Positions 20,607 to 53,068 of a DNA stretch of 64,000 nucleotides are shown one piece after another (the first letter of the stretch is position 1; each line of letters opens with the position of its first letter). Origin of the DNA: Clostridia bacterium (GTDB lineage Bacteria > Bacillota > Clostridia > Saccharofermentanales > UBA5734); assembly GCA_040772685.1 (NCBI GenBank), contig JAXGXQ010000002.1, forward strand, positions 170,094 to 234,093, in the 5' to 3' direction. Position numbers and translations under genes: made by a program. A model generated the notes under the pieces. The model saw nothing but the letters and a program-made list of their open reading frames with translations, ran no database searches and was not told where the DNA came from.

Positions 20607-20682
20607 ATTATTTGCTTGATCGTTGGATTAGGTTGTAAAGACGGAATTCAGATTAGTCAAAAGGGGATTGTTGACAAAAGAG

Positions 20683-20731
20683 AATAAGTGGCGCAGACGG
20701 AGCGATTTCGTTTGTACCACTTATTTTTGTT
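20683..20731 (+). terminator. Rho-independent terminator ending the LacI-controlled operon
   Basis: AATAAGTGG...CCACTTATT outer stem with inner CAGACG/CGTTTG pairing, followed by TTTTGTTT. Confidence 0.65.
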
Positions 20732-21022
20732 TATCATGAACAAGAAAAAAATCGCAAGTATTGGGTCTTTCGTATTGCACGTAAATGCCTATTATTATTA
20801 TGTTAGCAGATAATGGAGTAGAGTAGTACGTATCCAATTATTATCATGCAGAATTAATTGAAAACATTGAGCGTCGGCCGTGTGGTTACGTTATCGCCTG
20901 ACGCCAGGCTGAGAGTGTGTTAAGGTAAAGCTTTAGCGCTTATGATTACCATGAAGAACATTAAAAAATATATCTATGAAAAACATAGCTTATAACTTTA
21001 GCAACCCGAGCGAGGTAACGCA

Positions 21023-21696
21023 ATGACCACAAATGTTTTCGACATTATCGGTCCGGTTATGATCGGTCCTTCAAGTTCGCATACGCGGGTGCTGTCAGGC
21101 TGGGTTTGATTGCCAGGGAAATACTGGGTTCACAGCCAATAAAGGCGATAATTAGTCTGCATGGTTCATTTGCAAAAACCGGCATTGGGCATGGTACCGA
21201 TAAGGCTATCATTGGTGGTCTGCTTGGTTATGCACCTTCTGATCCGCGTATCCACTCAAGCCTGCAAACTGCTACCAAACTTAAACTGTATTACCAATTC
21301 AAGCATGTTGATTTAGGCGACGTACATCCAAACACTGTTTTGATTGAACTTTGGAGTGAGGATGGCAATAAAGCAATTGTACGCGGCTCTTCAATTGGCG
21401 GCGGTGCTGTACAAATTGAGTCGGTTAATGGCATGGAAGTTTCCTTCAGTGCGGAATACAGTACGCTAGTTATTCCCCATAAAGACGAGCCGGGTGTAAT
21501 TGCTGCAGTTACCAGTATACTGGCTGAAAAAAGAGTTAATATTGCCCGGATGAAGATATTCCGTAAGAATCGCGGTGGTGTCGCCTACATGATTATAGAA
21601 ACAGATCAGCCGATAACAGAGGAAACTAACAAGCTGATTGCAGATACTACTGGTGTTATCAGCTCATCAATAATCAAGGCGATTCAACATGATTGA
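21023..21696 (+). pseudogene. sdaAB: L-serine dehydratase beta subunit, frameshifted
   Basis: MTTNVFDIIGPVMIGPSSSH reads in frame from ATG 21023. The expected TAGAVRLGLIAREILG continues only after a 1-nt deletion around 21084-21086; the original frame stops at 21107. The ACT-like C-terminus is intact. Confidence 0.8.
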
Positions 21697-21706
21697 GGAA
21701 AACTTT

Positions 21707-22603
21707 ATGCTGGATTATACGAGCGTTTCCGACCTGGTCAAGTTGGCTGAACATAGCGGCATATCTATCGGTGAAATGGTATTGCACGACCAGGCGCGGC
21801 AGCAGGATCTACCTGTTGAGAAATTTATCGCGCTGATGTCTGAACGGTTGCAAATTATGCGTCAATCGGTCGAAACTGGTTTGCGCTCAGAAGAATTATC
21901 TATCAGTAGCCTTAGTGGCACTTCCGCAGCCAAGATGCACATAGCAAGTATTTCCTCCAAAACCATTTGTGGCCCGATTTTAAGTAAAATGTTGGCTAAA
22001 GCACTGGCAGTTGTGGAGGTCAATGCGCGAATGGGTCAGGTAGTCGCTGCTCCAACTGCAGGTTCTTGCGGCCTTTTGCCTGCTGTAATCCTAACCTTGG
22101 CAGTTGAGCTGCAGTTATCAGAAAAAGAGGCCATTCTGGGATTATTCACAGCCTCGGGTTTGGGACTTGTTGTCGCTAATTGCGCAACAGTGGCAGGGGC
22201 TGAAGGCGGCTGTCAGGCTGTATGCGGCAGTGCTGCAGCAATGGCTGCCGGAGCTGCGATTGCGATGATGGGTGGAAACCCGCGTCAGGTTGCAAATGCA
22301 TTTGCTATTGCCTTGAAGAACAGCCTGGGCCTGATTTGCGATCCGGTTGGCGGTTTGGTCGAAGTCCCTTGTATTAAGCGCAATGCCATCTCTGTTGCCA
22401 ACGCTATGGCTGCCAGTGATATGTCACTGGCGGGTATAGAAAGTGCAATCCCAGCTGACGAAGTAATAGCAGCAATGAAATCCATTGGCGACATGATGCC
22501 TATAGCTCTTAAAGAAACCTCTACCGGCGGTCTGGCCATGACGCCGACAGGGCAAAAGATAGCGGAAAAGATGGTGGAGATGGCGAGCAAACGCAGAAGA
22601 TGA
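21707..22603 (+). CDS. sdaAA: L-serine dehydratase alpha subunit
   Basis: Blocks TAGSCGLLPAV, GAEGGCQAVCGSAAAMAA and CDPVGGLVEVPCIKRNA. ATG 21707 follows a GAGGA RBS; the track start 21689 is also possible. Confidence 0.88.
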   Translation: MLDYTSVSDLVKLAEHSGISIGEMVLHDQARQQDLPVEKFIALMSERLQIMRQSVETGLRSEELSISSLSGTSAAKMHIASISSKTICGPILSKMLAKALAVVEVNARMGQVVAAPTAGSCGLLPAVILTLAVELQLSEKEAILGLFTASGLGLVVANCATVAGAEGGCQAVCGSAAAMAAGAAIAMMGGNPRQVANAFAIALKNSLGLICDPVGGLVEVPCIKRNAISVANAMAASDMSLAGIESAIPADEVIAAMKSIGDMMPIALKETSTGGLAMTPTGQKIAEKMVEMASKRRR

Positions 22604-22899
22604 GTGGTGTTTGCTGTTTAAACAAAGTGATTAGCAACCTCTAATCTTTTAATTGCAAGCTTCTAGTTAGTACTAATGTTAGTTCAAAAAAATAGGGTGG
22701 CATACTCAAATGCTGCTTCATCTGTACAATGGTATTTCTTGTTCCGAAGCATGTTAGAATGCCTGTTGAATTAATCATCCGAATATCCACACCTCATATG
22801 AAAGGAAATTCCAATTAGAGTATCTGGTGACTATTAGATTTCATCAGATAGCAAGAGCAGAAATCATTTACTAACGCAACTGTAAAAGCGCGAGAGGCA

Positions 22900-24074
22900 T
22901 ATGAATTCAAAGGAACGTATTGACAGCATACTTGGCAATGAGGAACCCGATCGTCCCTGTCGGGGAAATGCACATTATGTCTCCCGTAGCTAGCGAAATT
23001 CTTGACGTGAAGCGATTACAGGCGAAGGCGGCTGGACGATCCGTACCATGATGGAGATGCTAGTTAATAACAACCGCGCCGAGTACATCGAACGGCTTTC
23101 AAAAGATACTTATGATGTATTCACCAAAAGCGGCTTGGACCTGATTTGCACTGAACTGGATCCTTCCGCCGATTTGTCGGCAAAAATCTATAAAGATGTT
23201 ACAGCTGACAGTTGGGTAGAAGTGGACGCTGAAACAGGCGCCTGGGCGAAGTTTGTTTATAAAGAGAGTTCAGACACAGCACATGAAGTCGACTCACTCG
23301 AAAAGCAAGGAGAAGATTACGAGGCGATTGAGCAACATCTCGACACGATGGAAAAGCGTGGTTACGATCTGGATGACAGTATGTTCGATTCTACACGTTA
23401 CATGGTTGAACACGCTGGCAAAACGATATGTTCTTTATGGCGAAAATCCCCAACCTCATACCCTCGGGACGCAGTTGGTACACTAAATTCATGGAGATGA
23501 TGTATGTTGAACCTGAGCTGACAGAGCGGTTGTGCGATATCTATCTGCAATACGGTCTTGCCGTTGCTAAAAAGTACGCTGATCTCGGCCTGATTGCGTT
23601 ATGATCGCAACGGATTGGGCTGGTGCGAATGGACCGTTGTTTTCACCGGACATGATTAGAAAATAAGACTGGTTCCACAGATAAAAACAATGTCAGAATA
23701 CTGTCATTCCCGTGGATTGCTTGTGCTCAAGCATACTGACGGCAACATCATGCAATTTGTTGATGACTTTTTCTCTATGGGAATTGATGGCTATCAGAGT
23801 ATTGAGCCATATGCTGGTATGGACATTGGTTTTATCAAGCAAAAATATGGTGACAAGGTTTTACTGATGGGCAATATTGACTGCGCCCGTACACTGCCTT
23901 TTGGCTCAAAGGAAGAAGTTGTCAAGGAAACTATCGAATGCATGAAGCAGGCATTCTCCTGGCGGTGGTCATATCGTTTCGATCAACACTATTGGTTATC
24001 CCACATCCGCGGATAATTTCTTAGCTATGGTAGAGACTGTGCACCGTTTTGGGCAATATCCACTTTCATTATAA
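22900..24074 (+). pseudogene. Uroporphyrinogen decarboxylase (URO-D)/MtaA-family methyltransferase-like gene, several frameshifts
   Basis: MNSKERIDSILGNEEP... then VPVGEMHIMSPVASEIL in another frame. Fragments at 23048-23500 and 23690-24016, with a tail ...GGGHIVSINTIGYPTSADNFLAMVETVHRFGQYPLSL* ending at 24074. Confidence 0.75.
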
Positions 24075-24696
24075 ACGGCGTCAAAATGTCACGATCTCCA
24101 GCTGGCTGGTTTCTTAGCTTCCGTACTGGCTGGTTTCAATTTTGCCAAACGCATTATCTGCAACTTCATTAAATACCAGCGATCATTCTTTAAAATGCGG
24201 ACATCCAAAATTTTTCAAATGATGCCAAAAGTTGCGCTAATTTTGAAACCGCCGTTTCACCTGCTCAAAAGTACAAGAGGCTTACATTTTACTTGTGCTT
24301 TTTGACCATTAATATTGCGATTAGTAACTTAATTGGCGGCAATGACTGGACTCGAAAAAGTTTTCAGACGAAAAAGTATTATAAAGAAACAACGATAAAC
24401 TGCACAACTCATCCCCGCTCAGTGTTGACACATTGACAGGTTTAGATCTCGGATTTACATTGATACTATAAGTAAAAGCAATTGATCTTAATATATTTAA
24501 ATTGAATGCGTTATCCTTTAGCCTAAAGCCGTAGGATTTGCCAGACTTATGTGTTTCTTCATTCTCAACTCTGCAGTACACCGTCATGTCTGCTTTAATT
24601 ACTTTATAGACTTAAGCCTTATCAGAACTCTTGCTCATCGGCAATTTTATTACGTAAAGAAGCTAACTAAAGACACTAGTATGGAGAGTGGTATAA

Positions 24697-26249
24697 ATGA
24701 AAGATGTTCCACTATTAAAAGTTAAAGGTATATCAAAAGGATTTGGTGTTGTTCAAGCGTTGAGCAAGGTCGATTTCGAGTTAAGAAGCGGCGAAGTTCA
24801 CGCTCTAATGGGTGAGAACGGAGCCGGCAAATCAACCTTAGCGAAGATTATCAGCGGCATTGAAATTCCAGACGAAGGTAACATTGAGCTTTGTGGCAAG
24901 CAAGTTACCATAGATAACCCAGCATTCGCGACTGACAATGGAATCTCAATTGTGATGCAGGAATTTAACTCGATGCCGCATCTTACGGTCTATGAAAATA
25001 TCTTTATTGGCCACAAAGAAATATACAAACATGGGATAATCAATAAAAAAGAGGCAATTTCACGCACAGTCGACTTGCTTAAGCTGTTTGACATGCAAGG
25101 TCAAATCAGTCCGCATATGCTGCTATCAGGCTTATCTGTCGCGGAACAACAGATAGTGGAAATATTGAAGGCGGCTCGTACGATTCCCAAATCATAATAA
25201 TGGACGAACCTACAGCCGCGCTAAGCAAAACAGAAGCGGACCGGTTGTTCAGAGTAATTACCAGCCTAAAAGCAAAAGGTGTTGCCTTTATCATTGTTTC
25301 GTACTGCTTCAAGGAAATATTTGAAATTTCAGACCGAATCACGGTTCTCCGCGATGGCAATTTGGTTGTCGAAGGAGACATATGAGTGAAATGACCGAGC
25401 AAAAGCTTGTACGGGCTATGGTAGGTCGCGAAATCAAAGAGTTTTTTGGTGAAAAACGAAATAAGGGGAGACAGATTTCTAAAACACCCGTATTGAGTGT
25501 AGAAGGCTTATACGATAATTACGATTTTCTCAAAAAATATTTCTGTTTAATGCATACGGTGGTGAGATTCTTGGTATCGCTGGCTTAATCGGCGCGGGTC
25601 GCACCTCTCTTGTTCGTAGTATTTTTGGTGCGGACAGTTACAGGCAAGGCAGCGTCAAAGTTAATGGCAAAAGCATCCAAAAGCACTCGCCGGAGAATGC
25701 AATCAAAAACGGCATGGTGTTGGCAACGGAAAACAGAAAGGAGGGAAGGGCCGGGCTTAGTCTTTCAGTTTTGGTCAACATCGCCTTCGCCAAAACGGCG
25801 ACCAGACAAGGCTTTTGGCTGCCGCATCGCGCTGAAGCAAATGATTGTATTGAAATGATAAAAAACCTCAACATAAAGCTCGGTCATTACAGAAATCCAG
25901 CAGCTTAAGCGGTGGTAATCAGCAAAAAGTAGTTATTGCCAAGTGGCTTTTAACTGAGCCAAAAGTGATGATTCTGGACGAACCTACCCGGGGGATCGAT
26001 ATATCGGCAAAATCAGAGATTTACACGATTATTCAGAATTCGGCGCAACAAATGGTGTTGCAATAATTCGTGGTGTCCTCTGAGCTGCCTGAAATACTAG
26101 GAATTTGTGACAGGGTGCTAATTATGAAGGATGGCTCCCTTGTGGGCGATTTAAATGTTAAGGATGGCTTCACAGAAGAGCATGTAATGCAGTATGCTTC
26201 TTTTGCCGAGCGGCGGGTCAGTGAACTTTCAATCAAAAACAGGACTTAA
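24697..26249 (+). pseudogene. Sugar ABC transporter ATPase (RbsA/MglA-like, two-cassette), at least 5 frame breaks
   Basis: Walker A GENGAGKST in fragment 1. SQIIIMDEPTAAL is only readable in a shifted frame at ~25190. Later fragments are at 25200-25385, 25382-25588, 25610 onward, and ...[13 protein letters not shown] at ~25970. Confidence 0.8.
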
Positions 26250-26296
26250 GAACTATACAAAAATGCTATAACATGTGAATCAGGAGGATTCAATCC

Positions 26297-27298
26297 ATGA
26301 GCAATCATACAGCTGACAATGTCGCACGGAACGGCGAAATCTGAAGTATTAGATCTGCCTACTTCAGTCAGAAATAAGCGTCGGCTTGGGAATGATCGCT
26401 TTCTTTGTCTTCATGAGCATCGCGTCTCTTTACTTCCCTGACAGCGCAAAACATGGCCAACATAATGTCGCAGATAGCGATTATAGCGATTTTGTCAATT
26501 GGTCAAACCTACGTCATGCTCACAGGCGGCATCGACCTGTCGACGGGTAATACGCTTGGCATCATCTCAATGTTACTTGCCTTAACCATGCGTGATACGG
26601 GTAGTATTTTTCTGGGTGTAGTGGTTTGTTTGCTCGGAGGAATTTTTATCGGACTGGTAAATGGACTTCTGGTTTCTTATGTAGGAATCCCCGCTTTTAT
26701 TACGACTCTGGGCATGTCCATGATCACCAGAAGTGGGGACTATCTTGTTAGTGGTGGCCGCGCAGTCACGAGGCTGATTCCTGGCTTTGAAAAGCTCACA
26801 GTCTCAGGCTTCGGAATTTTCCCGATTTTACTATTTCGGCGTGGTGATTCTATGGAGTTTTGTAATGGCTTGGATACTGGCCAATACAAAACTAGGCCGT
26901 TACACCTACGCGATTGGTAGTAACGAAAACGCAACCTGCCTGGCAGTGTAAACGTGAAGAGATTCAAGAGCTACACCTACATCATTTCAGGCATCATGTT
27001 CGCCATTGGCGCCAATAATAATTGCCTCGCGTCTGGGGAGCAGACCCGAACTATGGTGATGGCTATGAAATGGATACTCCTTGGCAGCCGTAGTTATTGG
27101 AGGTACTGCGATGACCGCGGCAAAGGCACTTTGCTTGGCACAGGAATCGGTGTTATTTTTCTAGGCCTGATCAAAAACGGGCTAGATATCCTTGGGGTTT
27201 CACCCTATTGGCAGGGGTTGACTGTTGGCGTGATCATCATCCTCAAGCTTGTGATTGATAGAGCCGCTTCTCGAGAAAAGAAACGAAAAATTAGCTGA
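26297..27298 (+). pseudogene. Sugar ABC permease (RbsC-like), frameshifted
   Basis: Fragments 26453-26920 and 26954-27298 carry the typical QTYVMLTGGIDLS and GGTAMTGGKG-like segments split over several frames. Confidence 0.75.
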
Positions 27299-27355
27299 TA
27301 TTTCTTGGGGTTCATCCTCTTCATGAGGATCCAAATATAATAGGAGGTACTTCAA

Positions 27356-28429
27356 ATGTCCAAGAGAAAGATCATTACTATTTGCCTAAGCCTTGTTTTG
27401 GTTTTAGCACTGCTTGCCGGCTGTGGTAGCACAGCAACAACAACAGCTGCTACAACTGCCGGAACAACTGCCGGTACCACTGCAGGGACAACAAAAGGGT
27501 CCGCAGCAGCTACGACAACAACCGCGCCTACAACAACTGCCGCAACAAAGAAGACAATCGCTTACATCACGCCTTCAACAACTGTTCCTTTTTGAACTGG
27601 ACAGAAGAGGGTGTTAAGACTCAATGCGATACCTACGGCTGGGATATGATTACTTATGACTCTAAGGACAGTGCCACAACTCGGCTGACAAACGCTCAAA
27701 ACGCGATTACTCGTAAAGTTGATGCAATCGTGATTTCGCCAACTGACTCCGCCTCATGCGTTTCAGTATTAGCAGAAGCCCAAGCCGCGAAAGTACCGGT
27801 TGTTATTTGCGACATTGGTACAAACTCTTGGTGAATATGTTTCTATGTAGCAACACCAAACTTTGATGGTGCCTATGAAGTTGGTAAATATGTAGCTAAG
27901 TATATCCAAGACACAAACGGCATTAGGTCCGGTAGCTGAAATAATCGTACCTTTGGCCAGATTGAATGGTCAAAACAGACAAGCCGGGTTTAAAAAGGCA
28001 ATGGATGAAGTTGGCATCAAAATGACGACCACGCTTGAGAGCAAGAACTTTACCATTGACGAAGCTGTTTCTCAAACAAAGAATATTGTCACAGCTAACC
28101 CCGGACTAGTATGCCTTTGGGCACATCACTCCCAGGCTACCTTGGGAACAGTATCAGCTTTGAACGAACTAGGCCTGCAAGATAAGGTTTTGGTAGCGGC
28201 TTTTGACGGTGATCCAGATATCGTTGATTATCTGCAAAACGGCAAGGTTCTTGTTTGTGGTGCTCAGCAGCCAAAGAAAATGGGCCGTGAGTCTGTTACC
28301 GCTCTAAAAACACATTTTGATGGCGGCACACCCCAAAAAGAAATTCCTGTGCCGGTACTGTTACTCACCAAAGATAATGTCATGGCAAATCTTGACGCTA
28401 TTGAAAAGGACGTCTGCGGACTTAAGTAA
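27356..28429 (+). pseudogene. Sugar ABC substrate-binding lipoprotein (RbsB-like), frameshifted
   Basis: Lipobox LLAGC plus a Thr/Ala linker. The frame breaks at 27594 (CCTTTTTGAACTGG, where ..TTTTTGGAACTGG is expected) and again near 27835-27950. Confidence 0.8.
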
Positions 28430-28532
28430 CTCAAAACAGATATCTATGAAATAATTGTCAATAAGTAAAGTTGATAAGTCCGGGGTGTCACCCGACATCC
28501 CGGATAATTATTTTCCGGCAAGGAGACTTACC

Positions 28533-29194
28533 ATGCTACCTAAAGTCAAAAAGATACTGATTTGAGCCAGCCTGTCTACCATGCTTGCCCTGCCTGGCCT
28601 ACCTACGCTCCAACCAATGTAAATTATGAAGCCAGATACGCAACGCATGGTTTCACAGCTGAACGAATCGAAATGAACACGCACACAGGAACACATATGG
28701 ATGCCCCGTTTCACTTTAGTGATGAGGGTGAGACGATCGAGAACATGGACATGAGTCTGTTTCAGGGACGAGCGGTTGCTGTTGATCTGCGAAACATACA
28801 ATCGCAGGCAATTATGGCTGAGCACCTGAGCCACTTGCAGAACGTTTAAAGCAAAATGATATTGTTTTACTGTATACCGGCTGGGCTCAAAAGAGAGCCA
28901 TGACCAAAGAATATCTTTATGAATGGCCATATGTTTGGCGAGGCTGCGCAATGGCTGGTGGATCATCAGGTCAAATGCGTTTGCATCGATGGTTTGAGTG
29001 TCGGCGGTTGGCCGGAGGGAACCTGCGTGCCCCCGCACGATGTTTTGCTAAGCAACTCGGTCGTTATTGTCGAAGAACTTTATATGGACGAAGAGCTGTT
29101 TTCTGAACCGGAATGGTTCTTGGTTTGCTATCCGCTAAAGCTTGTTGGTTTTGGTGGCTCACCTGTCAGAGTCGTTGCTTTCGCGTTTGAATAA
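28533..29194 (+). pseudogene. Putative cyclase / kynurenine formamidase-family protein, frameshifted
   Basis: SQPVYHACPAWPTY...HTGTHMDAPFHF (the HxGTHxDxPxH motif) sits in one frame and the N-terminal and C-terminal parts in others. Confidence 0.75.
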
Positions 29195-29207
29195 AGAAGG
29201 TGTTAAG

Positions 29208-30058
29208 ATGCGGTCGTCTTTGTGCTGACTTTTGCATTCCCACTGATTAACCATGATGCTGCTTTTGATTTGATCGCCGCCATCGGTTTTGAAGGCGTTG
29301 ATGTTGGTTTGTTTGTTGACCGTTCTCATCTACAACCAGCAGACCAGTTTCAGAACATTCCGCTTCGTGCGCGGCTGAAATGCGAAAGAGAGCAGAGGAC
29401 CGGGGATTAGTAGTTTCAGATGTGTTTTTGCAGTCAGATTTAGATTTTACCCGTTACGCAGTGAATCATCCTGAAGCCGGACGGCGAGTGCATGCACGTG
29501 AGCAATTTTTAAAAATGTGTTGAATACACCTGTATAACAGAATCCAAGCATATATCTTGATTACCGGGCATTACGTTTGATTCCGAACCGTTTGAAAAAT
29601 CATTTGAGCGATGTATTGAAGAGAAATGCGTTTCAAGGCGGGTCAAAGAAGCAAATAAGGCAAATCTGAAGTACGGTGTTGAAGCTCACATAGACTCAAT
29701 CATTGAAGAGCCGGGTATGGCGATTCGCCTAATGTGAAAGCAGTTCCGGAACTGGGGTTAACTCTAGATTACTCGCATTTTGTCAGGCTGGGGAAACCAG
29801 ATACAGCTGGTGACGCATTAATCCCTTATGCTAATCATATGCATGGCGCGGTGCGGCCAAGGGAATTCTGCAGTCAAGTGTTGAGGAAAACGAAATAGAT
29901 TTTGCACGTGTTGTTCAATTGCTTAAAGACCATCAATACGCGAAATGGATCTGCCTGGAATACTGTTGACTTCACATTGGGAAAACTGCAGCCGCAACGA
30001 TAACATCTCCGAAACTGTCATTTTGCGCGACGTTTTACTCCAAGCTCTCAATAATTAA
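29208..30058 (+). pseudogene. Sugar phosphate isomerase/epimerase (xylose-isomerase-like TIM barrel), frameshifted
   Basis: Fragment LTFAFPLINHDAAFDLIAAIGFEGVDVGLF, with later fragments in other frames up to ...LQALNN* at 30058. Confidence 0.65.
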
Positions 30059-30061
30059 GAG

Positions 30062-31674
30062 TTAAAAATATGGTTCGGAGAAACCTCGTGAAGTGGCGTT
30101 TAAAGCAGCGGCTGAAATAGTAAACATCACGGTAACCAACATTTGTGGCGATGTCTGTAATCTCACTACGCAAATCAACTTTGAGCAAATCAAATGCTTT
30201 TTTCATGCGGTATGTGACTAGATATTCCGTCAGCTGTTTTTGCCGGTTTCCTTTTTTGAAAAGTACTCAGGTATGAGGGATTAGTGAAAATGGTTTTTGC
30301 TATTTGATCGAGACTCAATTCAGGTCATTAAAGCGTTGATCGATTTCAATCAGCGCTTTTTTTACTGTCGGATGGATTTGAATTGTCTCATAGGCCGCTT
30401 CAGCTTGTTCATGATAGCTTTAAGAAGATAGAGTACATTATCACGGAGTTCTTGAATCGAATCAGTAGAAATGGCGAAATTCCAATGAACCATTCAAAGA
30501 AAACTCTGGTAGTGAAAGGTTTTTGTGAGACAGATAGTTCTGAAAGACAGATAAAAATATTTATAGAAATGCTCTTAATATATTCTTCCGAACTCTATAG
30601 ATTTCGCTCCCCTCTAAAAATATTTTCAACTGCAACAGCCTGCTTCCTCAAAAATGTCCAAGCATAAGGTCCGATAAAATGTTAATCGCACTAGCAGCTG
30701 GAATATGATCAATTTTATTTAATGTAGATGTGGTTTCTGGCTGGAACACCATAATCGCCTTCCGATTATAAAAGCGCTCCTTAATAAAATGGTTGGCATC
30801 CTTATACGATTTGGCGATCGCTGTAGCTGATGATTGAATGGATCCGGAGTACGATCGTAGGATTGATTTTCAAATGATGCCTGGATAATTGAATTATCTC
30901 CTGACAGTCATTAACCAGCGGTGTCAATCCGGCCTCATATTCTGCTTGGCTAATTTGCACGATCATAGCGATTGTTAAATCAAGCTCTGTCAGGGCATCG
31001 CAGACCCGGTTCCTATTGACTATTTCCAAGGCAATGTTGGCAAGTGCATTTAGGAAAAGGACTTGATCAGATGAGTCTGTATAGTAGCTATCTTCGGGTT
31101 CAACATTTATGACCATGACAATGAAACCGCCTGGTTGCCAGTGCTCATTCCATTGCTGCACCGCTTCAGAATATCTTGTTCGTTGTCCTTAACAAAGCCA
31201 TTAATCAGGCGTCGAATATAATCAGACTTGATAGCCGCTTGACCACGGAATGCCTCGCTCATCAGACTAACATATTCTTGATTAAAGCTATCTTTTGTTA
31301 TCACCGAATCGCGTGCTTGAATTAACGCTTCCTTTAATTCACTAGCGTCAATCGGTTTAGTTATATAATTTACAGCCTTTGCTCGCAGAGCTTTTTGGGC
31401 ATATGTAAAAATCAGGATATCCGGTCAAAATTATTACTTGTATATTGGGATACTTTTCGGATATAAGCTGAGTAAGTTCCAACCCATTGATATGTGGTAT
31501 ATTAATATCAATTATCGCACTTGTGGATTATGAGTCTCGATTAATAGGATTGCTTCCTTACCATCGGCAGCTTCACAAACAACCTCAAGACCCAGTTCGT
31601 CCCAGTCAATCAACCGCTTGACCAGATCAAGAAGTAAAAATATTCATCATCAGCCAATAAAACTGAATTTTCAT
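30062..31674 (-). pseudogene. YesN-like response regulator (receiver + AraC-type HTH), frameshifted
   Basis: The minus strand starts ATGAAAATT at 31674, with receiver-domain fragments. The AraC HTH tail reads ...GFSEPYF* ending at 30062. Internal fragments at 30802-31161 and 31107-31304. Confidence 0.75.
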
Positions 31675-33488
31675 AAGCTAAGCCTACTTTCTTCTGGATT
31701 GTTTGGTATTAGCATTTCAACGCGAGTCCAATATCCGCTTTGATTCAACCTTCAATCCGTAAACATCACCAAAGCAAAGCTTAAGTCTTTTATCGATACT
31801 GGCCAGACCAAAAGCCCTTACGCTTTATACTTAGGGAAGGTTCCTGCTCTTCTTGGAATATAGTGTCGCTGATTTCAAATCCCTGGCCATTGTCGTAAAT
31901 CGCGATAACAGCATTTTCACCTTGGCTAAAGCATCTTATTAATATTCGCCCTCTTCGGCTGATATGCTTCAAACCATGGTAAATAGAATTTTCTACAAGA
32001 GGTTGAATAGACAGCTTTACCATTTTAAGACCTGCCATTGCCTCGGGCATTAGTATACGGAAAGAAATTTTCCTTCATAACGGATAGACTGAATTTTGAG
32101 ATAATTCTCTGTTATATCCAGTTCTTCAGCCAGTGTGACAAAACTTCTACTGCTGCTAAGAACGCCTTTATAAAAGCCAATGATCTTGACATGGTATATA
32201 AATCATCATTCCGGTCCAGTTGAGTAAGGGCGGAAACGCTTTCGAGTGAATTATAAAGAAAATGAGGATTGATTTGCGATTGCAATGCCTTAACTCAAGC
32301 TCACGTTTCTTGTTTTCTGAGCAGTAACCAATTCATCCATCAAACTGACTATTCGATCCAACATTTCGTCCATAGAATCCGCAAGCATGCCGATTTCATC
32401 TTTGCGATCAAATTTGGCGCGTACTTGCAAATCTTCTTGCCCATAGTGGTCATCATTTTTGCCAGATGACCAACCGATTTTGGTAACAGATTTTCGCATG
32501 ACAAGGGTAAACAATATTTCCAGGATGATAATGACAGCTGCAATTATATAGATCAAGCTACTTATCTGACGCTTTTCCTGAATTAGTTCATCGTAAGGCA
32601 AAAAGGCGCTAACAACAATTTGATCGGTTAAGAATTGGGACATCAAGCAATGTATTCTTTGCCCAAATAGTGATAGTGCTTCAGGCCTTCAAATTTATTC
32701 TCAACATAGTCGTTAAAGCTTGCTTGTTTAAGGTAATTACTTACCTCACTTCGCTCAAAAGGCAACAAAATTCGCCCCGAGCTGCTGGTTATTACAATCT
32801 GAGCAGAACGGTTGAAGCCAATTTCATTATAAATTTGAGATAATTGTCCGGTGTTGGATACTCGTGCTCACCATGCCAATGATAGTTGCGGTATCTTCAA
32901 GGTCATAGATTAGCCGGGTAACGCTGAGAGTTTCGTCTGCTTGTTGTTGGTGATGACAGAATTAAGTTCATTTGCGTTGGTCCAAAGAAATTTTTGTTCA
33001 GAATTTTTGATCTGCTTCATGATTTGGTCATCAAGCGGCCGGCCGCTTGTGGTTTCCAGCAACCCTTTCTGGTCGAGGAAGAGCAAGTGCCCACCATCAT
33101 TAAAGATTCCTAGCGAGTATATGTTGGGGTCAGTAGAGATTTCTTTGACGAGTGAGGATATGCGATAACTTAAAATTGTGTAGACATCAAATATGCTGGC
33201 AGAATGATTCTTCGATTTGGGATCTTTCAAAAATTGTTGTATAGTTAAGCTTTTAACTAGGTGGGATGTTCTTTCTTCAAGATTGTCATTCAACTTGTCA
33301 AAATAGTCTGAAACTTCCGTGAGGTTAGTTTCTGTCAAGCGGATAGCTTTGCCGATTACTAACTTGTGCGCTAATGATTCGGCAAAAAAGAACATGGTAA
33401 CGATCAGGATCGAGATAAGGATGCCTGTAAAGTATTGAATTTTTTGCGCAATTGTCAGGTTATTAAAATACTTGGCAAATCTCTTCAA
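31671..33488 (-). pseudogene. YesM-like sensor histidine kinase, frameshifted
   Basis: The N-terminal sensor part (32910-33488, TTG start after AGGGAG) is intact. HAMP (32290-32646) and HATPase (31790-32050) fragments are in different frames. The reconstructed tail ...VEMLIPNNPEESRLSL* overlaps the RR start by ATGA. Confidence 0.75.
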
Positions 33489-33501
33489 GTTTTTCTCCCT
33501 T

Positions 33502-34650
33502 TCAATATTTAGGCGCTATGTCATTCACTTCCAGACCGTAGGAATTAGTCCGGTTGGTGTAGGCCACCAGGAAACTATCAGATTGATCCGGGTAATAATA
33601 TACTGTTGCCTCTTTATAGGATGCATAAGGAATATCCATCTTGTTATTCTGCGGTACCTTTTCCCCAGCTAGAATCCTGAGTGCGATATCTACGCTTTCT
33701 GCCACAATATATGGCGGTTGCCCAACAGCAAAGCCAATAACACCATCATTTTGCATATGGCGAAAGAATCCGTTAGACATTTCACCTGTCATGGGAATTT
33801 TTTGCGGAGAAAGACCGTGAGATATTAACGCCTCATAGATAGCACTTTCGCCGCCGCCTTCGTTTAGAATTCCATCAATGGCAACTCCATCGAAACTCGA
33901 CAGCATTTGCCGCATCAATGTTGCTGTTGCTTCATTGTCCCATTTACCATCACCCTGATCTAGGACATGAATATCTGGATAGTTTTTCAAAACAGAATCA
34001 ATTCCGATTCCCCGGTCTCTACTTACAGAAGTGCCAGTGATCCCGTTGATTCGCAAAACATTACCCTTTCCTTCCATAGTTTCGACAAGCCACTGGGCCA
34101 ATAGGCGGCCATATTCAACTTGATCTGTATTTACACAGTACACTTTTTCGCAATCAACAGTATTATCGAAAGTAACAACAACGATACCTTGAGCAGTCGC
34201 CTCCGTTAAAACTTCAACCAACGAGGTTGGGGAAGCGGCATTAACAATTATCGCATCATAACCACTTTTAATCAGATACTTAATCTCATTGATCTGGGCA
34301 AGGGAATCATTACCGCTACTGGTTGCATATGCTGAAGCCAGGATACCTTCTTCGATAAGCTTCTTAGTATAAGCTTCAAAAATTTTCACCGTTTCGGCTC
34401 GCCAGTGATTACCAATATAAGAATTGCTGAACGCGATGCGATAACCAATAGGATTTTTTGGCGCAGCTGGAGATGTAGTTGATGTTTTAGAACTGGGATA
34501 GTTCATTGGGGTTGGACTTGCAACGCCAAACGAAAAATCACTGGTAAGCGAAGTGTCGGAGCAGCCTGCCAAAGCCAGTGCTAAAATTAGACTGACAACC
34601 ATGATTAGCTTAAACACCTGCTCTCGTGCAGTACGATGTTGCTTTGCCAT
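33502..34650 (-). CDS. Periplasmic sugar-binding lipoprotein (Peripla_BP_1/4-like) heading the HK/RR operon; apparently intact
   Basis: 382 aa with lipobox LALAGC and a Ser/Thr/Pro linker; blocks IAFSNSYIGNHWR and DAIIVNAASP are typical of RbsB-type folds. Confidence 0.8.
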   Translation of the reverse strand: MAKQHRTAREQVFKLIMVVSLILALALAGCSDTSLTSDFSFGVASPTPMNYPSSKTSTTSPAAPKNPIGYRIAFSNSYIGNHWRAETVKIFEAYTKKLIEEGILASAYATSSGNDSLAQINEIKYLIKSGYDAIIVNAASPTSLVEVLTEATAQGIVVVTFDNTVDCEKVYCVNTDQVEYGRLLAQWLVETMEGKGNVLRINGITGTSVSRDRGIGIDSVLKNYPDIHVLDQGDGKWDNEATATLMRQMLSSFDGVAIDGILNEGGGESAIYEALISHGLSPQKIPMTGEMSNGFFRHMQNDGVIGFAVGQPPYIVAESVDIALRILAGEKVPQNNKMDIPYASYKEATVYYYPDQSDSFLVAYTNRTNSYGLEVNDIAPKY

Positions 34651-34979
34651 GGAATTATACTCTCTTAATTAAGTGAGCTTATTTGTTATAGCAATTATAA
34701 CACGAGAGATTAATTTGTAATATTTGCGATAATCACATAGTGGTAAAACGCGTACTAATTTCAATTGAGACAGAAAATCTGTAAGGGTTTAATATTGTAC
34801 TCTCATTAAATCCTGAACCTCATTGGTTTGCATTGAAGCATTGAGTCTTGATGTCATCATTTAGCCCAAACTGTCATGAATTTGTGCTTCATCTAAAAAG
34901 CTCTTTGATCTGCTCTTCTTGATTAATTTCTCCTAGTATTATGATATTGCGCTGTCAAGCGCTGGTTTAGCCTGTTGCT

Positions 34980-35157
34980 TGATATAATGCACGCAGACGC
35001 TGTGGACTGGTACGCTCTCCTACCGCTTGACGGTTTTTTCAAGGCTCCAGCCACAGCTTTTTGCCTAATTGGTGATGAGTCAGATACCGCTCGACGGTTT
35101 ATATAGAACTAGGATCGGGTAGCAAAAAGTCTGTGGAATATTCAGCGTACTTTTTTC
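34980..35157 (+). ncRNA. Candidate structured non-coding leader of the IS110-family element, at the position where IS110-type bridge RNAs are encoded
   Basis: Extended -10 TGATATAAT (34980-34988). An 11-bp stem (34999-35010 with 35047-35057) encloses a hairpin at 35025-35045 and is followed by T5. A 15/16 direct repeat TACCGCT[T/C]GACGGTTT sits at 35021-35036 and 35085-35100. GTACGCT (35010-35016) is complementary to AGCGTAC (35144-35150), which is followed by T6 just before the transposase RBS. Confidence 0.35.
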
Positions 35158-35173
35158 AAAGGATGGAAAATCC

Positions 35174-36108
35174 ATGATCTATGTAGGTATTGATGTCGCC
35201 AAGGCTAAACACGACTGTTGTATCCTTAGCAGTGATGGCAGCGCCCTTCGGGAACCATTCACGTTCGCAAACGATCAGGGTGGGTTCGACTTGTTAATGG
35301 CACCAGTATCTTACCAAATTCAGGAGCTCAAGACACTAACACGCCAGTCTGCGTTTGGTTGCCCGGCAAACCAAGCTCAAGGTCAGTATCTCCAGGCTGG
35401 TGGACATACTTTTCCCTGAGTTGCCATCTATCTGCTGCTTCGTCACTCAAGCTTCTATAAAGGCGGCCGTGCTGCTCGAACTCCTCTAGTGCCCGCGAGA
35501 TCGCAGCCTGCCGTATTGATCGGCTGACGAATCTTCTTCGAAAGTCTTCCAAAGGGCGCTATGGCGGTGAGAAAGCCCTTCAAATTAAAGCTTTGGCTAA
35601 AAGTTCAATCGGATCCTCAAGCCCCGCTACTGCATTAGAACTGCAGTTCACTCTGCAACAGCTCAACTTCATACAGCAACAAATTGCTCGCCTTGACAAA
35701 GAAATCCGGGACGCCGTTTTGTCTACTAAAACTCCGCTGCTTTCCATTCCCGGCATTGGTCCAACTCTCGCTGCTATTATTCTTGCCGAGATCGGCGACA
35801 TCCAGAACTTCAGTTCGCCTGACAAGCTTCAAGCCTTTGCAGGGCTTGATCCTTCGACCTACCAATCTGGCAAGTTCAAGGCCGATAAGACGCCAATGGT
35901 CAAACATGGCTCGACTTACTTGCGCTGGGCATTGATGCAGGCAGCACGTTTAGCCGCCTTGAACTGTGAGACCTTCCGTCGTTATCTTGAGTTAAAACGT
36001 GCCCAAGGGAAACACTACTTTGTTGCCCTTGGCCATACAGCTAAAAAACTCATACGCGTCATATTTCACATTCTGAATACCAACGAGGTCTTTGTTCCTC
36101 AGACGTAA
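35174..36108 (+). mobile_element. IS110-family transposase gene, degenerate (internal deletion plus frameshifts)
   Basis: N-terminus MIYVGIDVAKAKHD (DEDD_Tnp_IS110) runs for only ~43 aa before jumping to ...IQELKTLTRQ, so about 100 aa are missing. The C-terminal Transposase_20 part is intact (35593-36108, PGIGPTLAAIILAEIGD). Element ends were not determined. Confidence 0.8.
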
Positions 36109-36230
36109 CTGAGTTCACCTTTCGATCGTCGAGGCTTGTTCCAGATGGATCAGGCCTTTTCAGCATGCATTATTGTCAAGGTTCACTGCATCTAGCGACT
36201 ACGCTACTTTTTCTCATTTAGAGCTTGACT

Positions 36231-37258
36231 TCATATAGTCAGTCTAGATAAATCTGTGTGATACAAAACGTCATAACGGAGACGATCAGCAGATATGGGA
36301 TTATTGACATAATTATCCTTAAAAGTATTCCAGTTATCCGAAAGCTTTTTGGGACACAAAACCAGAACTGAGCGGTTTTTATTTTCGTAGTATTTAATTA
36401 CTGAAAGTGCAGTGAACGTTTTGCCAAGCCCTACGCTGTCGGCAAGAATGCATCCATTAAAAGACTTCGAGCTTATTAATGATAGCCAAAGCCGCATCTT
36501 TTCTGGAAAGTATAGAGCATATTCCAAATTTTGCCTTCTTTAAAGCCAGTAGCTTCATTTGGCAAAACATCCTCAGAAATATCCTCGAGAAATTCGTTGA
36601 AAATATTGTATATGGCTATGTAATAGATAAATCTTGGTGAATTTTCATTATAAGCCGCAGTGATACCTTCAATGACCTGTTCAGTAACATCCTGCATAAG
36701 GGTCTTGTCATTCCAGATTTGATTAAACATGCGAACGTATTCGTTCGAAAGTGGCGCAAACATCTTATTGACAGGATTGATAATGTTGTTGCCGCGCTCA
36801 CAACCTATATCCGCAGTAGTAAACCCATACAGAGGCATGTAAGTTATTGACTCAGTACCGGTGATATTCATAAAACCGCTTATATTTCCACCAGTCAAAT
36901 TTGAACGAAACTTAACTTTCTTACGTATCCAATCGGCACATTCACGAGCGATTGCTTTCTGTGTCAGTTCGTTGCGAAGTTTTACTTCAAACTCCGTGCC
37001 GTAAAGAGATCGCTCACGGTCAAGGCGAGGTATATAGAATTCTCTCTTTTCTTTTGGTGCTTTTTCTTGCAAGAATGTCGGTGAAGTGAAAATAAAACGT
37101 AACTCATCAATACCGTCAAGTTGTTCCTTTAAAGCTTGGTAAGCATATATGGAGAAACATGCCGCCGCAATCGCCAGATTGTCACCTTTTTTAATTGTTA
37201 CAGCTAAGTCATCTTTTAAAGTTTTGCCTACGTTATCAAGTATTTCGGGCATTTGCAT
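36231..37258 (-). pseudogene. SNF2-family helicase with degenerate PLD-like N-domain; frameshifted and truncated after helicase motif I
   Basis: N-terminus ...NLAIAAACFSIYAYQALKEQLDGIDELRFIF, then LYTFQK / ILADSVGLGKTF (the DxxGLGKT motif) split over frames at homopolymers A4 36459-36462 and T4 36499-36502. The reading frame ends at 36231, with no helicase C-domain anywhere downstream. Confidence 0.75.
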
Positions 37259-37465
37259 AATGTGAGCTCCTAAGTAACTGACTTTAACTGCTTAAATATT
37301 TTAAACACAATTTACATAAAGATTAATGACGAGCTAATGAGAGCTAATACACGATTTGCACATAGAGTAGTCGAATTTCAAATATCTTAATTATCACTAA
37401 ATTGAAAAATTATAGCAAATTATAATATTTACAATATGGTTACTATAAATAAATTTGAATCAATT

Positions 37466-39148
37466 TTATATCTTAGACAGCTCATCTTTGAACGCCGGTT
37501 TGTTAGCATATTCGGTAGCCAGCTTATGTTTGACTTCTGTTGCCTGTTGATGCCCGCCAAGCTCTATTAGTTGCCGTATAATGGCACATACACTTTGGTA
37601 ATCTTTCCTGTTACGTGCTCCGACAGCACTTAGCTCAATATACTGAGCAAATAGAGTGTATACCACTTCTGAAAACTCCGGAAGCAGTTGATCATAAAAA
37701 ACTACTATCATTGAGGGCCTTGACTTAATATGAGTGAGGAGTTTCTGTTTTTCTCCTTCTTCGATTAGAACAAGCGGGTAGATGCTATTCCTTTTGTTTT
37801 CCAGTAGTAAAAAAATTTCAGGGTATATAGAACTCCATTCTTGGCTGTTGTAAGTGTTTTTCAGTTCCTTATAATATTCAAAATTATCATCAAGAATAAA
37901 TTCCATGGCTAACCCGCGCATATCTTCAAGTCTGCCTGAACGCTGAAATGCCTGGTAACGGTATTTCTTCCACTGATTTACTTGTCCACGAAATTCTTGA
38001 TCTTCTTTTTCGCCATCAAGCGTCAGGTTAACTACCGCATTGTAATCTTTAGCTGCCATAGCGTTTTCTATAGCCATTTTTCTAAATTCAGGATATTGTA
38101 AATTCTGTTCAATAAAATCCAGCGCCTTTTTTCGCCCATCAAAATGTTCAATTATCTTATACCTAATGAGATTAATTCTTTCCGTCAGGTAGCTATTGCT
38201 CCAAGAATCCTCATTGTGGTTATTTTTAAGTGCTTCGAAATGCTTTTCTAATACATTTCGCAAAACTAAAGTATCGGCCAACTTTGAGCAACATTCCAAA
38301 AACTCCAGTTTCCAATCAGTCCAACCTTCGTATCGCGTGTGCGACGCTTCTTCTAGCAATAAATGAAAAATACTGGCTTTCTCCGGTTGGCTTAAGAATT
38401 TACTCGCAACTATTTCATGGATGAGTGCCAGGCTTTCTTCAATTTCGCCGCCGATATATCCGGAGGAATCGTCTGCATTTTCAAGTAGTGACATCATTTC
38501 CCTGATTACACAAAGGGAGAGGTGTAAAGCTTGAATAAAATCGTTTTTGGCTAAAGCAATACGGGCTCTATCCAATACCAATCCCGTTCCTTTGATTGCT
38601 GCCCAGACATCATTGTATGCAATATATCCACGACTGCTTGAATTATTTCTGATATAGGTGCGGATAAGGTTTTCAGATTGGGAAATTTCGTCCTCAGCGG
38701 TTCCTTCGTTAAAATGCAATTTTAATAATTGCTCGATTTCTTCGTTATCACTTGCGATTGCCAGGATAAATTCAATAAGTTCAGATTTTGTCCTCTGCAA
38801 AAGCAATTCTTTCATATCAGGCTCTTCTATTTGGCTGTAAGCTGGATAAACTGTATTCAAATTATTGGTAACTTCATTATTCTTTGCATCACGTATAGCG
38901 AAGAAAGCGGACACCTGATGTTTGCAGTATTCGCCTCGATCATAAGGGCAATCACATTGGCTCGCTGTTATCGCTTCCTGATCATCGAGCTCAACTTCTA
39001 CTTTATACAAATTACTGCCTTCCACCGTTACCACATAAAAATTTTTCTCGACTTCTTTCACTGAAATCACACAGTTATTTACGTAATAATCATAGCCTCT
39101 GGCAACAATTACATTATTAATCTGCTTTTCGAAATTCTGGAGATTCAT
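37466..39148 (-). CDS. SWIM zinc-finger domain protein
   Basis: CDCPYDRGEYCKHQVSAF is the CxCx(n)CxH SWIM signature, near the N-terminus of a ~560-aa helical protein. Start set at ATG 39148 (AAAGGAG RBS) rather than 39223. Confidence 0.8.
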   Translation of the reverse strand: MNLQNFEKQINNVIVARGYDYYVNNCVISVKEVEKNFYVVTVEGSNLYKVEVELDDQEAITASQCDCPYDRGEYCKHQVSAFFAIRDAKNNEVTNNLNTVYPAYSQIEEPDMKELLLQRTKSELIEFILAIASDNEEIEQLLKLHFNEGTAEDEISQSENLIRTYIRNNSSSRGYIAYNDVWAAIKGTGLVLDRARIALAKNDFIQALHLSLCVIREMMSLLENADDSSGYIGGEIEESLALIHEIVASKFLSQPEKASIFHLLLEEASHTRYEGWTDWKLEFLECCSKLADTLVLRNVLEKHFEALKNNHNEDSWSNSYLTERINLIRYKIIEHFDGRKKALDFIEQNLQYPEFRKMAIENAMAAKDYNAVVNLTLDGEKEDQEFRGQVNQWKKYRYQAFQRSGRLEDMRGLAMEFILDDNFEYYKELKNTYNSQEWSSIYPEIFLLLENKRNSIYPLVLIEEGEKQKLLTHIKSRPSMIVVFYDQLLPEFSEVVYTLFAQYIELSAVGARNRKDYQSVCAIIRQLIELGGHQQATEVKHKLATEYANKPAFKDELSKI

Positions 39149-39299
39149 ACCGCTCCTTTTTCCCAACGCGTACACCATAGCTGATTTGTTTTGATTATAG
39201 TTGCCTCCATGGGTTTTGACCATGTTTACGACAATAATGAAGGCGCCTATAATTAAGGAAAATCATCTGTTGATCAAAGTAATAACAAGGAGCACCCTC

Positions 39300-45702: not shown

Positions 45703-45792
45703 TGGCGGAGAGAGAGGGATTTGAACCCTCGGTACGCTCACACGTACGCCGCATTTCGAGTGCGGTGCCTTCAGCCGCTCGACCATCTCTCC
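45703..45792 (-). tRNA. tRNA-Ser (anticodon CGA), long variable arm, encoded CCA
   Basis: The minus strand reads GGAGAGATGGTCGAGCGGCTGAAGGCACCGCACTCGAAATGCGGCGTACGTGTGAGCGTACCGAGGGTTCAAATCCCTCTCTCTCCGCCA. Anticodon stem CCGCA/TGCGG with loop CTCGAAA. Confidence 0.92.
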
Positions 45793-45839: not shown

Positions 45840-45944
45840 GAATCGCTGACTATTGACAGAATCGCGCTTTTATACTTTTGTTTCAATGCGTTATCACTTC
45901 AGGCATTTCGTGCCAATAAGTCTTGATGTCTCTTTAACAGCATT

Positions 45945-48780: not shown

Positions 48781-48880
48781 AGATGCCTCCTTTAATGAGT
48801 TGGCAGGGACGAAAGTCAATAAGTAAAAACTGTCATTTTGAGTCAATATTGTTCAGTTGGAAATTTTCAGAAGCAAATCA

Positions 48881-50002: not shown

Positions 50003-50153
50003 TTTGCCTCCTCAGACTGCGCTGGCAAGACGGCGGTTTTATGCATCGGCCGCCTTGCTTTTCGTGTTCAATAACTGAAAATATTATAGCAGATAGCACT
50101 GTAAGATTCGCGGATCCGGCAGCTAAACCAGCTTTTGCTTCACGCGCAAGCTT

Positions 50154-51077: not shown

Positions 51078-51128
51078 AAAACTCGGCTCCTTTTTTGTAC
51101 TTTATCACCTAGTCAATGCACAAAAGCT

Positions 51129-51162
51129 ATGGGCAGGGTGTGAAAAATCTATATTTGCCCAT
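51129..51162. promoter_or_regulatory. Inverted repeat ATGGGCA-N20-TGCCCAT in the LysR divergent intergenic region (candidate regulator site)
   Basis: Read directly. Also a direct repeat AAAATTGCA x2 about 25 nt apart further downstream (~51171-51205). Confidence 0.35.
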
Positions 51163-52157: not shown

Positions 52158-52175
52158 GAGAGGATGTACAGAATC

Positions 52176-53066: not shown

Positions 53067-53068
53067 TA

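Follow-up and report, generated by a model that had tools for sequence, protein, structure and literature searches.

Judged from the sequence itself, the dense frameshifts between positions 22,955 and 32,945 of the window (the whole stretch of 64,000 nucleotides that was analysed) are very probably the product of a poor assembly consensus and not of real gene decay. This core is most likely a long-read consensus, of low coverage or unpolished, placed inside an otherwise accurate sequence; the long-read technology is one that we infer. Random insertions and deletions of 1-2 nt, at about 0.66% per base, would then break each reading frame that they hit. As judged from sequence comparison, the underlying genes comprise one of the URO-D family and those of a sugar-uptake locus, which encodes an ABC transporter, a cyclase, an isomerase and a sensor of three parts (binding protein, histidine kinase and AraC-type regulator); in the organism itself, all of these genes are probably intact and subject to selection.

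Distribution and boundaries of the lesions

Frameshift-aware alignment with intact homologs identifies 11 disrupted genes within positions 21,023-37,258 (Table 1). The core was compared with the intact operon on Logan contig L002 (91% identical) and with that of the outgroup L001, and the operon is fully intact in both of these known relatives. The preliminary description of this DNA had reported 12 disrupted genes, although it listed 11, and had extended the breakage over 16 kb. The disruption of the tract is confirmed, but 66 of the 72 lesions are placed in a core of 9,991 bp (22,955-32,945), at 6.6 per kb, and these 66 are all small indels that change the frame (lengths other than multiples of three). 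Stop-to-stop frames of at least 200 codons cover 89% of the left flank and 86% of the right flank, and 0% of the core. The spacing of the lesions inside the core fits an exponential (Poisson) distribution (CV 0.81, KS p = 0.20).

Table 1. Features in and beside the disrupted tract, with dN/dS and amino acid identity of the operon genes relative to the intact operon on contig L002
Feature	Coordinates	Strand	State	dN/dS	Identity
sdaAB (L-serine dehydratase beta chain)	21,023-21,696	+	single 1-nt deletion after CATAC, at about 21,085; otherwise intact		
sdaAA (L-serine dehydratase alpha chain)	21,689-22,603	+	intact; SDH_alpha positions 3-260 of 260		
URO-D family gene	22,901-24,074	+	6 frame slips: 22,955; 23,004; 23,420; 23,590; 23,664; 23,954		
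ABC sugar-transporter ATPase (two ABC_tran domains)	24,697-26,224	+	7 frameshifting indels	0.11	92%
ABC permease (BPD_transp_2)	26,297-27,298	+	8 frameshifting indels; one TGA at 26,342	0.08	94%
Substrate-binding protein SBP1 (Peripla_BP_4)	27,356-28,429	+	4 frameshifting indels	0.07	97.5%
Cyclase-family protein (PF04199)	28,533-29,194	+	3 frameshifting indels	0.06	97%
Sugar-phosphate isomerase/epimerase (AP_endonuc_2)	29,208-30,058	+	7 frameshifting indels; one TGA at 29,558	0.24	
AraC-type response regulator (Response_reg + HTH_18)	30,055-31,674	-	17 frameshifting indels	0.19	
Histidine kinase (dCache_1, HAMP, His_kinase, HATPase_c)	31,671-33,488	-	11 frameshifting indels	0.09	
Sensor-associated substrate-binding protein	33,502-34,650	-	intact; 0 indels	0.18	
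IS110-family transposase, defective	35,174-36,108	+	frame slips at 35,348 and 35,484-35,487; internal deletion		
SNF2-family helicase stub	36,231-37,252	-	two +1 slips: 36,499-36,502 and 36,462-36,465		
SWIM zinc-finger protein	37,466-39,223	-	intact upstream partner of the SNF2 gene; first clean gene right of the tract		

No broken genes were found in the 48 kb of the window that flank the tract, where the open reading frames are tightly tiled. Most of the 17 flanking open reading frames compared with Pfam match a domain over nearly its full length; three are without a Pfam match, and in none is a domain split between adjacent frames. With the lesion rate of the core, flanks without a single lesion would have a probability of about 1e-127. 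The preliminary description is borne out in that the genes outside the tract read through, and in that sdaAA and the sensor-associated binding protein are intact within the tract.

The edges of the core are sharp and intragenic, located at codon 19 of the URO-D gene and at codon 182 of the histidine kinase. The 11 kinase indels are all downstream of codon 182, whereas codons 1-182 are clean. Positions 21,086-22,954 are free of lesions, and the sole lesion in 32,946-35,347 is an intergenic 1-nt indel at 34,657. At the core rate, the absence of lesions in sdaAA and most of sdaAB has a probability of 5e-5, and that in codons 1-182 of the kinase and the adjoining binding protein of 1.4e-5. These boundaries bear on a first alternative, in which a real dead island is proposed: a sugar-utilisation locus, gained by horizontal transfer and silenced perhaps by an IS110-associated rearrangement, that erodes neutrally via slipped-strand mutations. 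This is considered very unlikely. The lesions end midway through the kinase and spare its sensor binding protein, although this protein has no use in the absence of the kinase; likewise, sdaAA is spared though useless without sdaAB. The lesion distribution tracks coordinates and not gene function. Since functionally dependent genes are untouched and the edges fall within genes, selection cannot explain the clean parts.

Lesion spectrum and selection on the corrected genes

Relative to L002, 69 indel events are counted (33 deletions and 36 insertions), a balanced set without the deletion bias expected of a dead island. Sixty of them are 1-2 nt in length: the 1-nt events comprise 26 deletions and 19 insertions, and the 2-nt events comprise 4 deletions and 11 insertions, six of the latter being non-templated. 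Two deletions of 4 nt occur, the longest in the 10 kb; only 5-6 events are in-frame, and no event exceeds 7 nt. The coding sequences carry 57 frameshifts, in contrast to only two nonsense codons; the presence of these two is nevertheless a point in favor of the island.

The preliminary description had also read the breaks as a homopolymer signature, which the counts do not sustain: 70% of the slips are near a run of at least three identical bases, compared with 69% of random positions. The indel rate per base is 0.31% where a base is isolated and 0.4-1.05% where it belongs to a run of 2-5, and this near independence of run length likewise argues against slipped-strand erosion. The slip that it had assigned to three C residues at 22,946-22,948 in the URO-D gene is best read as the loss of 2 nt at about 22,955, a position placed by eye against one protein homolog only. 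Compared with its intact 391-aa homolog (P0223), the URO-D gene has neither a nonsense codon nor a deletion, and its reconstruction spans 100% of that homolog.

The spectrum implies a substitution:indel ratio of about 1 or less, whereas the ratio in bacteria is 4-23 (PMC6330053). At a ratio of 4, from the same source, 7.5-9.4 nonsense codons are expected, against the two observed (P = 0.005-0.02), as well as about 160 extra missense changes, against an observed excess of 19-47.

Once corrected for indels, the seven broken operon genes have dN/dS values of 0.06-0.24 relative to L002, compared with 0.18 in the intact binding protein. They retain 88-97% amino acid identity, the changes are predominantly at third codon positions and the catalytic motifs are intact; the ATPase, for example, keeps its Walker A, signature and Walker B motifs. 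Divergence by substitution is about 8% relative to L002 and stays flat between broken and intact parts. Both the dN/dS of the reconstructed frames, which does not rise above that of the intact neighbour, and the flat divergence speak against an eroding island. On the other hand, the amino acid changes private to the window are modestly in excess (89 versus 42), as the island would predict and as would also be expected from a brief relaxation of selection. Of these changes, 38% are no more than 12 nt from an indel; away from indels the numbers are 55 versus 36. The contrast between the closest relative of the operon, at 91% identity, and sdaAA, for which no relative exceeds 61%, would also fit an acquired island. 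No sequence of the same species was found in the genomes or metagenomes searched.

A second alternative is a localised, indel-specific hypermutation, in which one or a few rounds of copying of the 10 kb by a very frameshift-prone synthesis, such as error-prone repair or break-induced replication, would have left many small indels and few substitutions. It would account for a sharply bounded block of about 10 kb with Poisson-spaced lesions, and for a spectrum dominated by indels with few substitutions. Nevertheless, the pattern of the core is the textbook one for long-read consensus errors, and the event would offer no gain to a living lineage. Known mutagenic repair synthesis raises error rates by orders of magnitude, which are still far below 1e-3 per base, and we know of no described bacterial process that yields about 0.7% indels per base. 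Such an origin is thus regarded as extremely improbable. If true, it would imply an undescribed, extremely frameshift-prone and tract-limited process of bacterial DNA synthesis or repair.

The right-hand end of the tract

The transposase gene at the right-hand end misses about 80 residues (240 bp) of the DEDD catalytic domain, a deletion that the preliminary description had recognised and had estimated at about 300 bp. The Pfam matches are restricted to positions 1-39 of 155 of DEDD_Tnp_IS110 and positions 4-85 of 87 of Transposase_20. Its domain content marks the copy as a defective IS110 remnant that cannot encode an active transposase, because these catalytic-domain residues are absent and the frame slips twice. 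Defective IS copies carrying internal deletions are common. The adjacent SNF2 stub keeps the first ~331 residues of a protein whose homologs have ~970-1,120, and matches only positions 15-76 of 290 of SNF2-rel_dom. Its homology stops at about 36,243, beside the end of the IS110 copy and ~135 bp past the transposase stop codon; the sizes of IS110 elements make an end at this distance plausible.

The internal deletion and the SNF2 truncation look like genuine and ordinary IS-associated damage. Structural damage of this kind adjoining the tract would favor the dead island. The earlier argument that these two lesions are not base-calling errors is sound; they are placed outside the dense core and, as a sign of real decay, are uninformative on its frameshifts. 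It is also unlikely, though less so than either of the alternatives for the core, that the whole right-hand end is itself an assembly artefact, with the deletion and the truncation marking a collapsed or chimeric repeat join. Misassembly and failed polishing classically occur at IS elements (PMC8812927), the four small slips of this region cluster at the IS or up to about 260 bp away, and the missing 2 kb of the SNF2 gene were found nowhere within the window. Against this, the SNF2 homology ends roughly where the IS end could lie, as an insertion with an adjacent deletion would give, and the junction sequence itself has no signs of a chimera. The four small slips, together with the single one in sdaAB, could be real or errors alike. 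With one base added, sdaAB encodes a protein of 224 residues that contains SDH_beta positions 2-150 of 155 and an ACT domain.

Comparison with long-read assemblies, pseudogene tracts and sugar-sensing loci

The lesion spectrum, the selection on the corrected genes, the gene-blind edges and the lesion density together point to an unpolished or low-coverage long-read consensus and not to neutral erosion. The preliminary description had left both open: its low-quality or low-coverage patch fits every test run on the core, whereas its silenced, eroding island is contradicted. Unpolished or low-coverage long-read assemblies (Nanopore, PacBio CLR) have the same dominance of 1-2-nt indels with few substitutions, and full-length conserved proteins are likewise recovered from them upon frame correction. 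The indel density of the core, about 660 per 100 kb, is of like order to the 474 per 100 kb of an unpolished MinION consensus, while short-read assemblies have fewer than 2 (PMC6487183). Pseudogenization of genes through long-read indels is a known effect (PMC12007338), and errors remain wherever polishing reads cannot be placed (PMC8812927). Two differences are observed. The dependence on homopolymer length is weaker in the core than usually reported for Nanopore consensus, and the errors occupy one 10-kb block of a clean 64-kb window instead of being genome-wide. An accessory island poorly covered by polishing reads may be the cause of such local errors, or else a skipped processing chunk; the confinement to one 10-kb block is a point against the assembly reading.

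Natural pseudogene tracts, such as decaying islands and reductive genomes, share with this one the contiguous disrupted genes beside an IS and a truncated neighbour. Natural decay also brings a mix of nonsense and frameshift mutations, a deletion bias and multi-base and large deletions (mutational input: PMC6330053), as well as elevated dN/dS and run-length-dependent slippage, and these features are absent from the core. At the right-hand end, the IS110 copy has the common features of its family, namely the N-terminal start of DEDD_Tnp_IS110 and the C-terminal Transposase_20 domain, and shares 52% identity, over query residues 31-311, with an IS110 transposase annotated in Clostridium felsineum (p239).

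With regard to the identity of its genes, the locus itself resembles what we take to be a three-component sensing system with a CUT2-type ABC transporter, such as AraPST/AraEGH of Geobacillus stearothermophilus. The matching content comprises the Peripla_BP_4 sensor, the kinase with dCache, HAMP and His_kinase domains and the regulator with Response_reg and HTH_AraC domains. The arrangement also matches, with the sensor genes convergent with those of the ATPase, permease and binding-protein transporter. A cyclase gene and an AP_endonuc_2 isomerase gene are additions specific to the locus in the window.

Identity of the locus and distribution of its lesions

The left end of the locus encodes an L-serine dehydratase (sdaAB and sdaAA), followed by a URO-D family protein, a CUT2-type sugar ABC transporter (ATPase, permease and the binding protein SBP1), a cyclase-family protein and an AP_endonuc_2 isomerase/epimerase. 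Convergent with the transporter side is a three-part sensor, formed by a separate binding protein, a dCache/HAMP histidine kinase and an AraC-type response regulator. We take the locus to resemble known three-component sugar-sensing loci. Two unusually long non-coding gaps precede sdaAB and the ABC ATPase; Rfam gives no match in the tract (21,023-37,258), and neither gap holds a known riboswitch or leader. Further to the right, a tRNA-Ser gene stands where the G+C content jumps from ~0.40 to 0.51-0.56 (45,900-64,000), which may mark the edge of a tRNA-integrated element or a stretch of foreign DNA. Neither of the two large ORFs immediately past this gene has a Pfam match.

Two sources provided intact comparators. 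A scan of species-representative genomes gave a syntenic outgroup locus in a Clostridia MAG (JAXGXR010000001.1; L001), with ~71% DNA identity to the window locus and all eight operon genes intact. A protein search with the intact sensor binding protein gave a 90% relative, whose Logan contigs L002 (10,478 bp) and L003 hold the complete, intact operon. The L002 genes encode the sensor binding protein (382 aa), histidine kinase (607), response regulator (537), isomerase (279), cyclase (221), second binding protein (358), permease (331) and ATPase (507), and window positions 24,657-34,729 align with this contig at 90.9% nucleotide identity. The remaining references were P0223, an intact URO-D homolog of 391 aa, SNF2 homologs of up to about 970-1,120 aa and the annotated IS110 transposase of Clostridium felsineum plasmid p239. 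The collections reached hold no same-species sequence, the nearest being L002/L003 (91%) and then L001 (71%). No relative emerged from a metagenome scan that used the central binding-protein fragment, and the JGI relatives in protein searches do not exceed about 55-61% identity. Two Logan samples, ERR10905741 and ERR10905742, contain the intact relative of the sugar operon. For the adjacent sdaAA, no relative exceeds 61% amino-acid identity, and L001 has the operon in common with the window but not the flanking genes. This may mean that the operon is mobile among lineages of Clostridia, or simply that its relatives are poorly sampled.

In the six-frame ORF list, long ORFs are tightly packed up to 20,606 and resume at 37,466. 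Only ORF fragments occur in between, except sdaAA and the sensor binding protein. Coverage by stop-to-stop frames of 200 codons or more is 89% in the left flank and 86% in the right flank but 0% in the segment 22,955-32,945, hereafter the core. Seventeen flanking ORFs were run against Pfam: most match a domain over nearly its full length, three have no match, and no domain is split over neighbouring ORFs. These results confirm the run of broken genes amid clean flanks noted in the preliminary description. Lesions were called by frameshift-aware protein-to-DNA alignment against the L001 proteins and by nucleotide alignment against L002. The alignment gives 11 disrupted genes, not the 12 first counted (the original list itself names 11), and the damage, described as reaching nearly every gene across 16 kb, is concentrated: 66 of the 72 lesions fall inside the core (9,991 bp; 6.6 per kb). 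One lesion lies in 21,024-22,954, one, intergenic, in 32,946-35,347 and four in 35,348-36,527, while the other ~48.5 kb of the window (both flanks and 36,528-37,258) have none. As a curiosity only, the length of the core, close to 10 kb, recalls the fixed-size chunks of consensus and polishing software.

Features of the tract and its surroundings (window positions; strand in brackets)
Feature	Position	State
Non-coding gap upstream of sdaAB	20,607-21,022	~415 bp
sdaAB	~21,085 (lesion)	one 1-nt deletion; one added base gives a 224-aa SDH_beta + ACT protein
sdaAA	21,689-22,603	intact
URO-D		6 slips
Non-coding gap upstream of ABC ATPase	24,075-24,696	~620 bp
ABC ATPase		7 lesions
Permease	26,342 (TGA)	8 lesions and the TGA
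Binding protein SBP1		4 lesions
Cyclase		3 lesions
Isomerase	29,558 (TGA)	7 lesions and the TGA
Response regulator		17 lesions
Histidine kinase		11 lesions
Sensor binding protein	33,502-34,650 (-)	intact
IS110	35,348 and 35,484 (slips)	reference residues ~43-122 lost
SNF2	36,499-36,502 and 36,462-36,465 (slips)	two +1 slips; homology stops at ~36,243
SWIM zinc-finger protein, directly upstream of SNF2	37,466-39,223 (-)	585 aa, intact
Beta-lactamase-family ORF	39,201-40,250 (+)	longest frame extends into the 5' end of the divergent SWIM gene
tRNA-Ser (CGA)	45,703-45,792 (-)	
Large ORFs past tRNA-Ser	45,945-47,255; 47,143-48,846 (-)	

Selection, spectrum and geometry of the core lesions

Substitutions against L002 are uniform, at ~8% per 500 bp in broken and intact parts alike, and once the indels are removed they fall mainly at third positions. 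The dN/dS values of the broken genes are 0.09 (kinase), 0.19 (regulator), 0.24 (isomerase), 0.06 (cyclase), 0.07 (SBP1), 0.08 (permease) and 0.11 (ATPase), compared with 0.18 for the intact sensor binding protein. Amino-acid identity to L002 is 88-97%, the Walker A, ABC signature and Walker B motifs are all intact, and ~2,800 codons contain only two nonsense substitutions. Relaxed selection is not evident from dN/dS. In a relative-rate test with L001 as outgroup, the window has 89 private amino-acid changes and L002 has 42. Of the 89, however, 38% are found no more than 12 nt from an indel, against 16% expected; these indel-adjacent changes reflect indel placement and compensated indel pairs (e.g., ATPase 25,745-25,754). 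Farther from indels, the window has 55 private changes and L002 has 36.

The indels against L002 number 69, with 26 1-nt deletions, 19 1-nt insertions, 11 2-nt insertions, four 2-nt deletions and two 4-nt deletions, and none exceeds 7 nt. A handful of indels in multiples of three resemble ordinary species differences. Insertions and deletions are balanced, and the 1-nt events are mostly gains or losses in runs of only a few bases, typically two. The indel rate per base is 0.31% at isolated bases and 0.73, 0.41, 0.68 and 1.05% in runs of 2, 3, 4 and 5, respectively, nearly flat with run length, and a run of at least 3 lies near 70% of the frame-slip sites and 69% of random positions. The short-homopolymer breaks first read as a signature of slippage or sequencing error therefore fail to discriminate error from decay. 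Contingency loci and programmed frameshifting are rejected, since slips occur by the dozen in a single operon and at sites that are not repetitive.

In mutation-accumulation data from ten bacterial species, the substitution:indel ratio ranges from 4 to 23, indels cluster in simple repeats, with small deletions as a rule commoner than small insertions (PMC6330053). The expectation was calculated from the lowest ratio (4), 57 frameshifts and the same codons. Natural mutation would then yield 7.5-9.4 nonsense codons, against the two observed (P = 0.005-0.02). It would also add ~160 missense changes, where the excess actually seen is 19-47. With the ratio set to 10, the probability for the nonsense count drops to less than 2e-6. 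The data are fitted by a ratio of ~1 or less.

Within the core, lesion spacing fits an exponential distribution (CV 0.81, KS p = 0.20). Segment 25,100-25,600, for example, has three slips (25,174, 25,377 and 25,537), and segment 30,400-30,700 has seven indels (30,410-30,650). At its borders, sdaAA is intact although its obligate partner sdaAB is broken, and the sensor binding protein is intact although its kinase and regulator are shattered; the histidine kinase itself is clean over codons 1-182 and then carries 11 slips. The probability that the clean coding stretches escaped by chance at the core rate is 5e-5 on the sdaAA/sdaAB side and 1.4e-5 on the binding protein/kinase side. Retained function cannot account for these clean segments, because the obligate partners are the broken genes and the clean zone includes part of the kinase. 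The lesion process tracks coordinates, not genes.

Probable structural damage at the right end of the tract

The IS110 transposase is short of ~80 DEDD-domain residues (Pfam matches only positions 1-39 of 155), with Transposase_20 present. The SNF2 helicase ends at residue ~331 of about 970-1,120 (SNF2-rel_dom positions 15-76 of 290 only), and the rest of the gene is nowhere in the window. SNF2 homology ends ~135 bp past the transposase stop codon. Both lesions look like genuine, ordinary IS-associated damage, though a misjoin at the repeat might also have produced them. The preliminary description rightly held that they are not base-calling errors, but this point bears on a region other than the core. 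The four small slips of the two relics, like the lone sdaAB slip, may be either mutations or errors.

SWIM and SNF2 (together 36,231-39,223, minus strand) form a recurrent gene pair, of which the helicase half is lost here, beside the IS110 remnant. The Pfam match of the neighbouring beta-lactamase-family ORF starts at residue 59 and its true start is probably further downstream; its overlap with the SWIM gene is an ORF-extension artefact, not a lesion.

Origin of the core

The core is probably not a real biological feature. Of the two explanations offered at the outset, the assembly patch is supported and neutral erosion is not; real decay is improbable, and a truly novel, indel-only hypermutation event is highly improbable. 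Real indels would make the tract remarkable, but the evidence is against them. The core would be a patch of low-quality consensus set in sequence that is accurate elsewhere, most likely a long-read consensus of low depth or one never polished. The restriction to one block may reflect an accessory island under-covered by reads in a mixed population, or possibly a skipped processing chunk. Errors persist where polishing reads cannot be placed (PMC8812927). As for a repeat or duplication behind failed polishing, the window contains no second copy of the core, and its edges are free of repeats.

The main value of the result is a warning. Annotated at face value, the tract would yield nine or more pseudogenes and an apparent decaying sugar-utilisation island, and would distort pseudogene counts, metabolic reconstruction and genome-reduction inferences for this uncultured lineage of Clostridia. 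A read-free recipe for separating assembly indel errors from true decay also emerges: an intact close relative as comparator, nonsense versus frameshift counts, indel rate versus run length, frame-corrected dN/dS, and whether lesion boundaries respect genes. That indels in long-read data create spurious pseudogenes is well recognised (PMC12007338). The indel density of the core, ~660 per 100 kb, compares with 474 per 100 kb published for an unpolished MinION assembly, 23 after polishing and fewer than 2 in short-read assemblies (PMC6487183).
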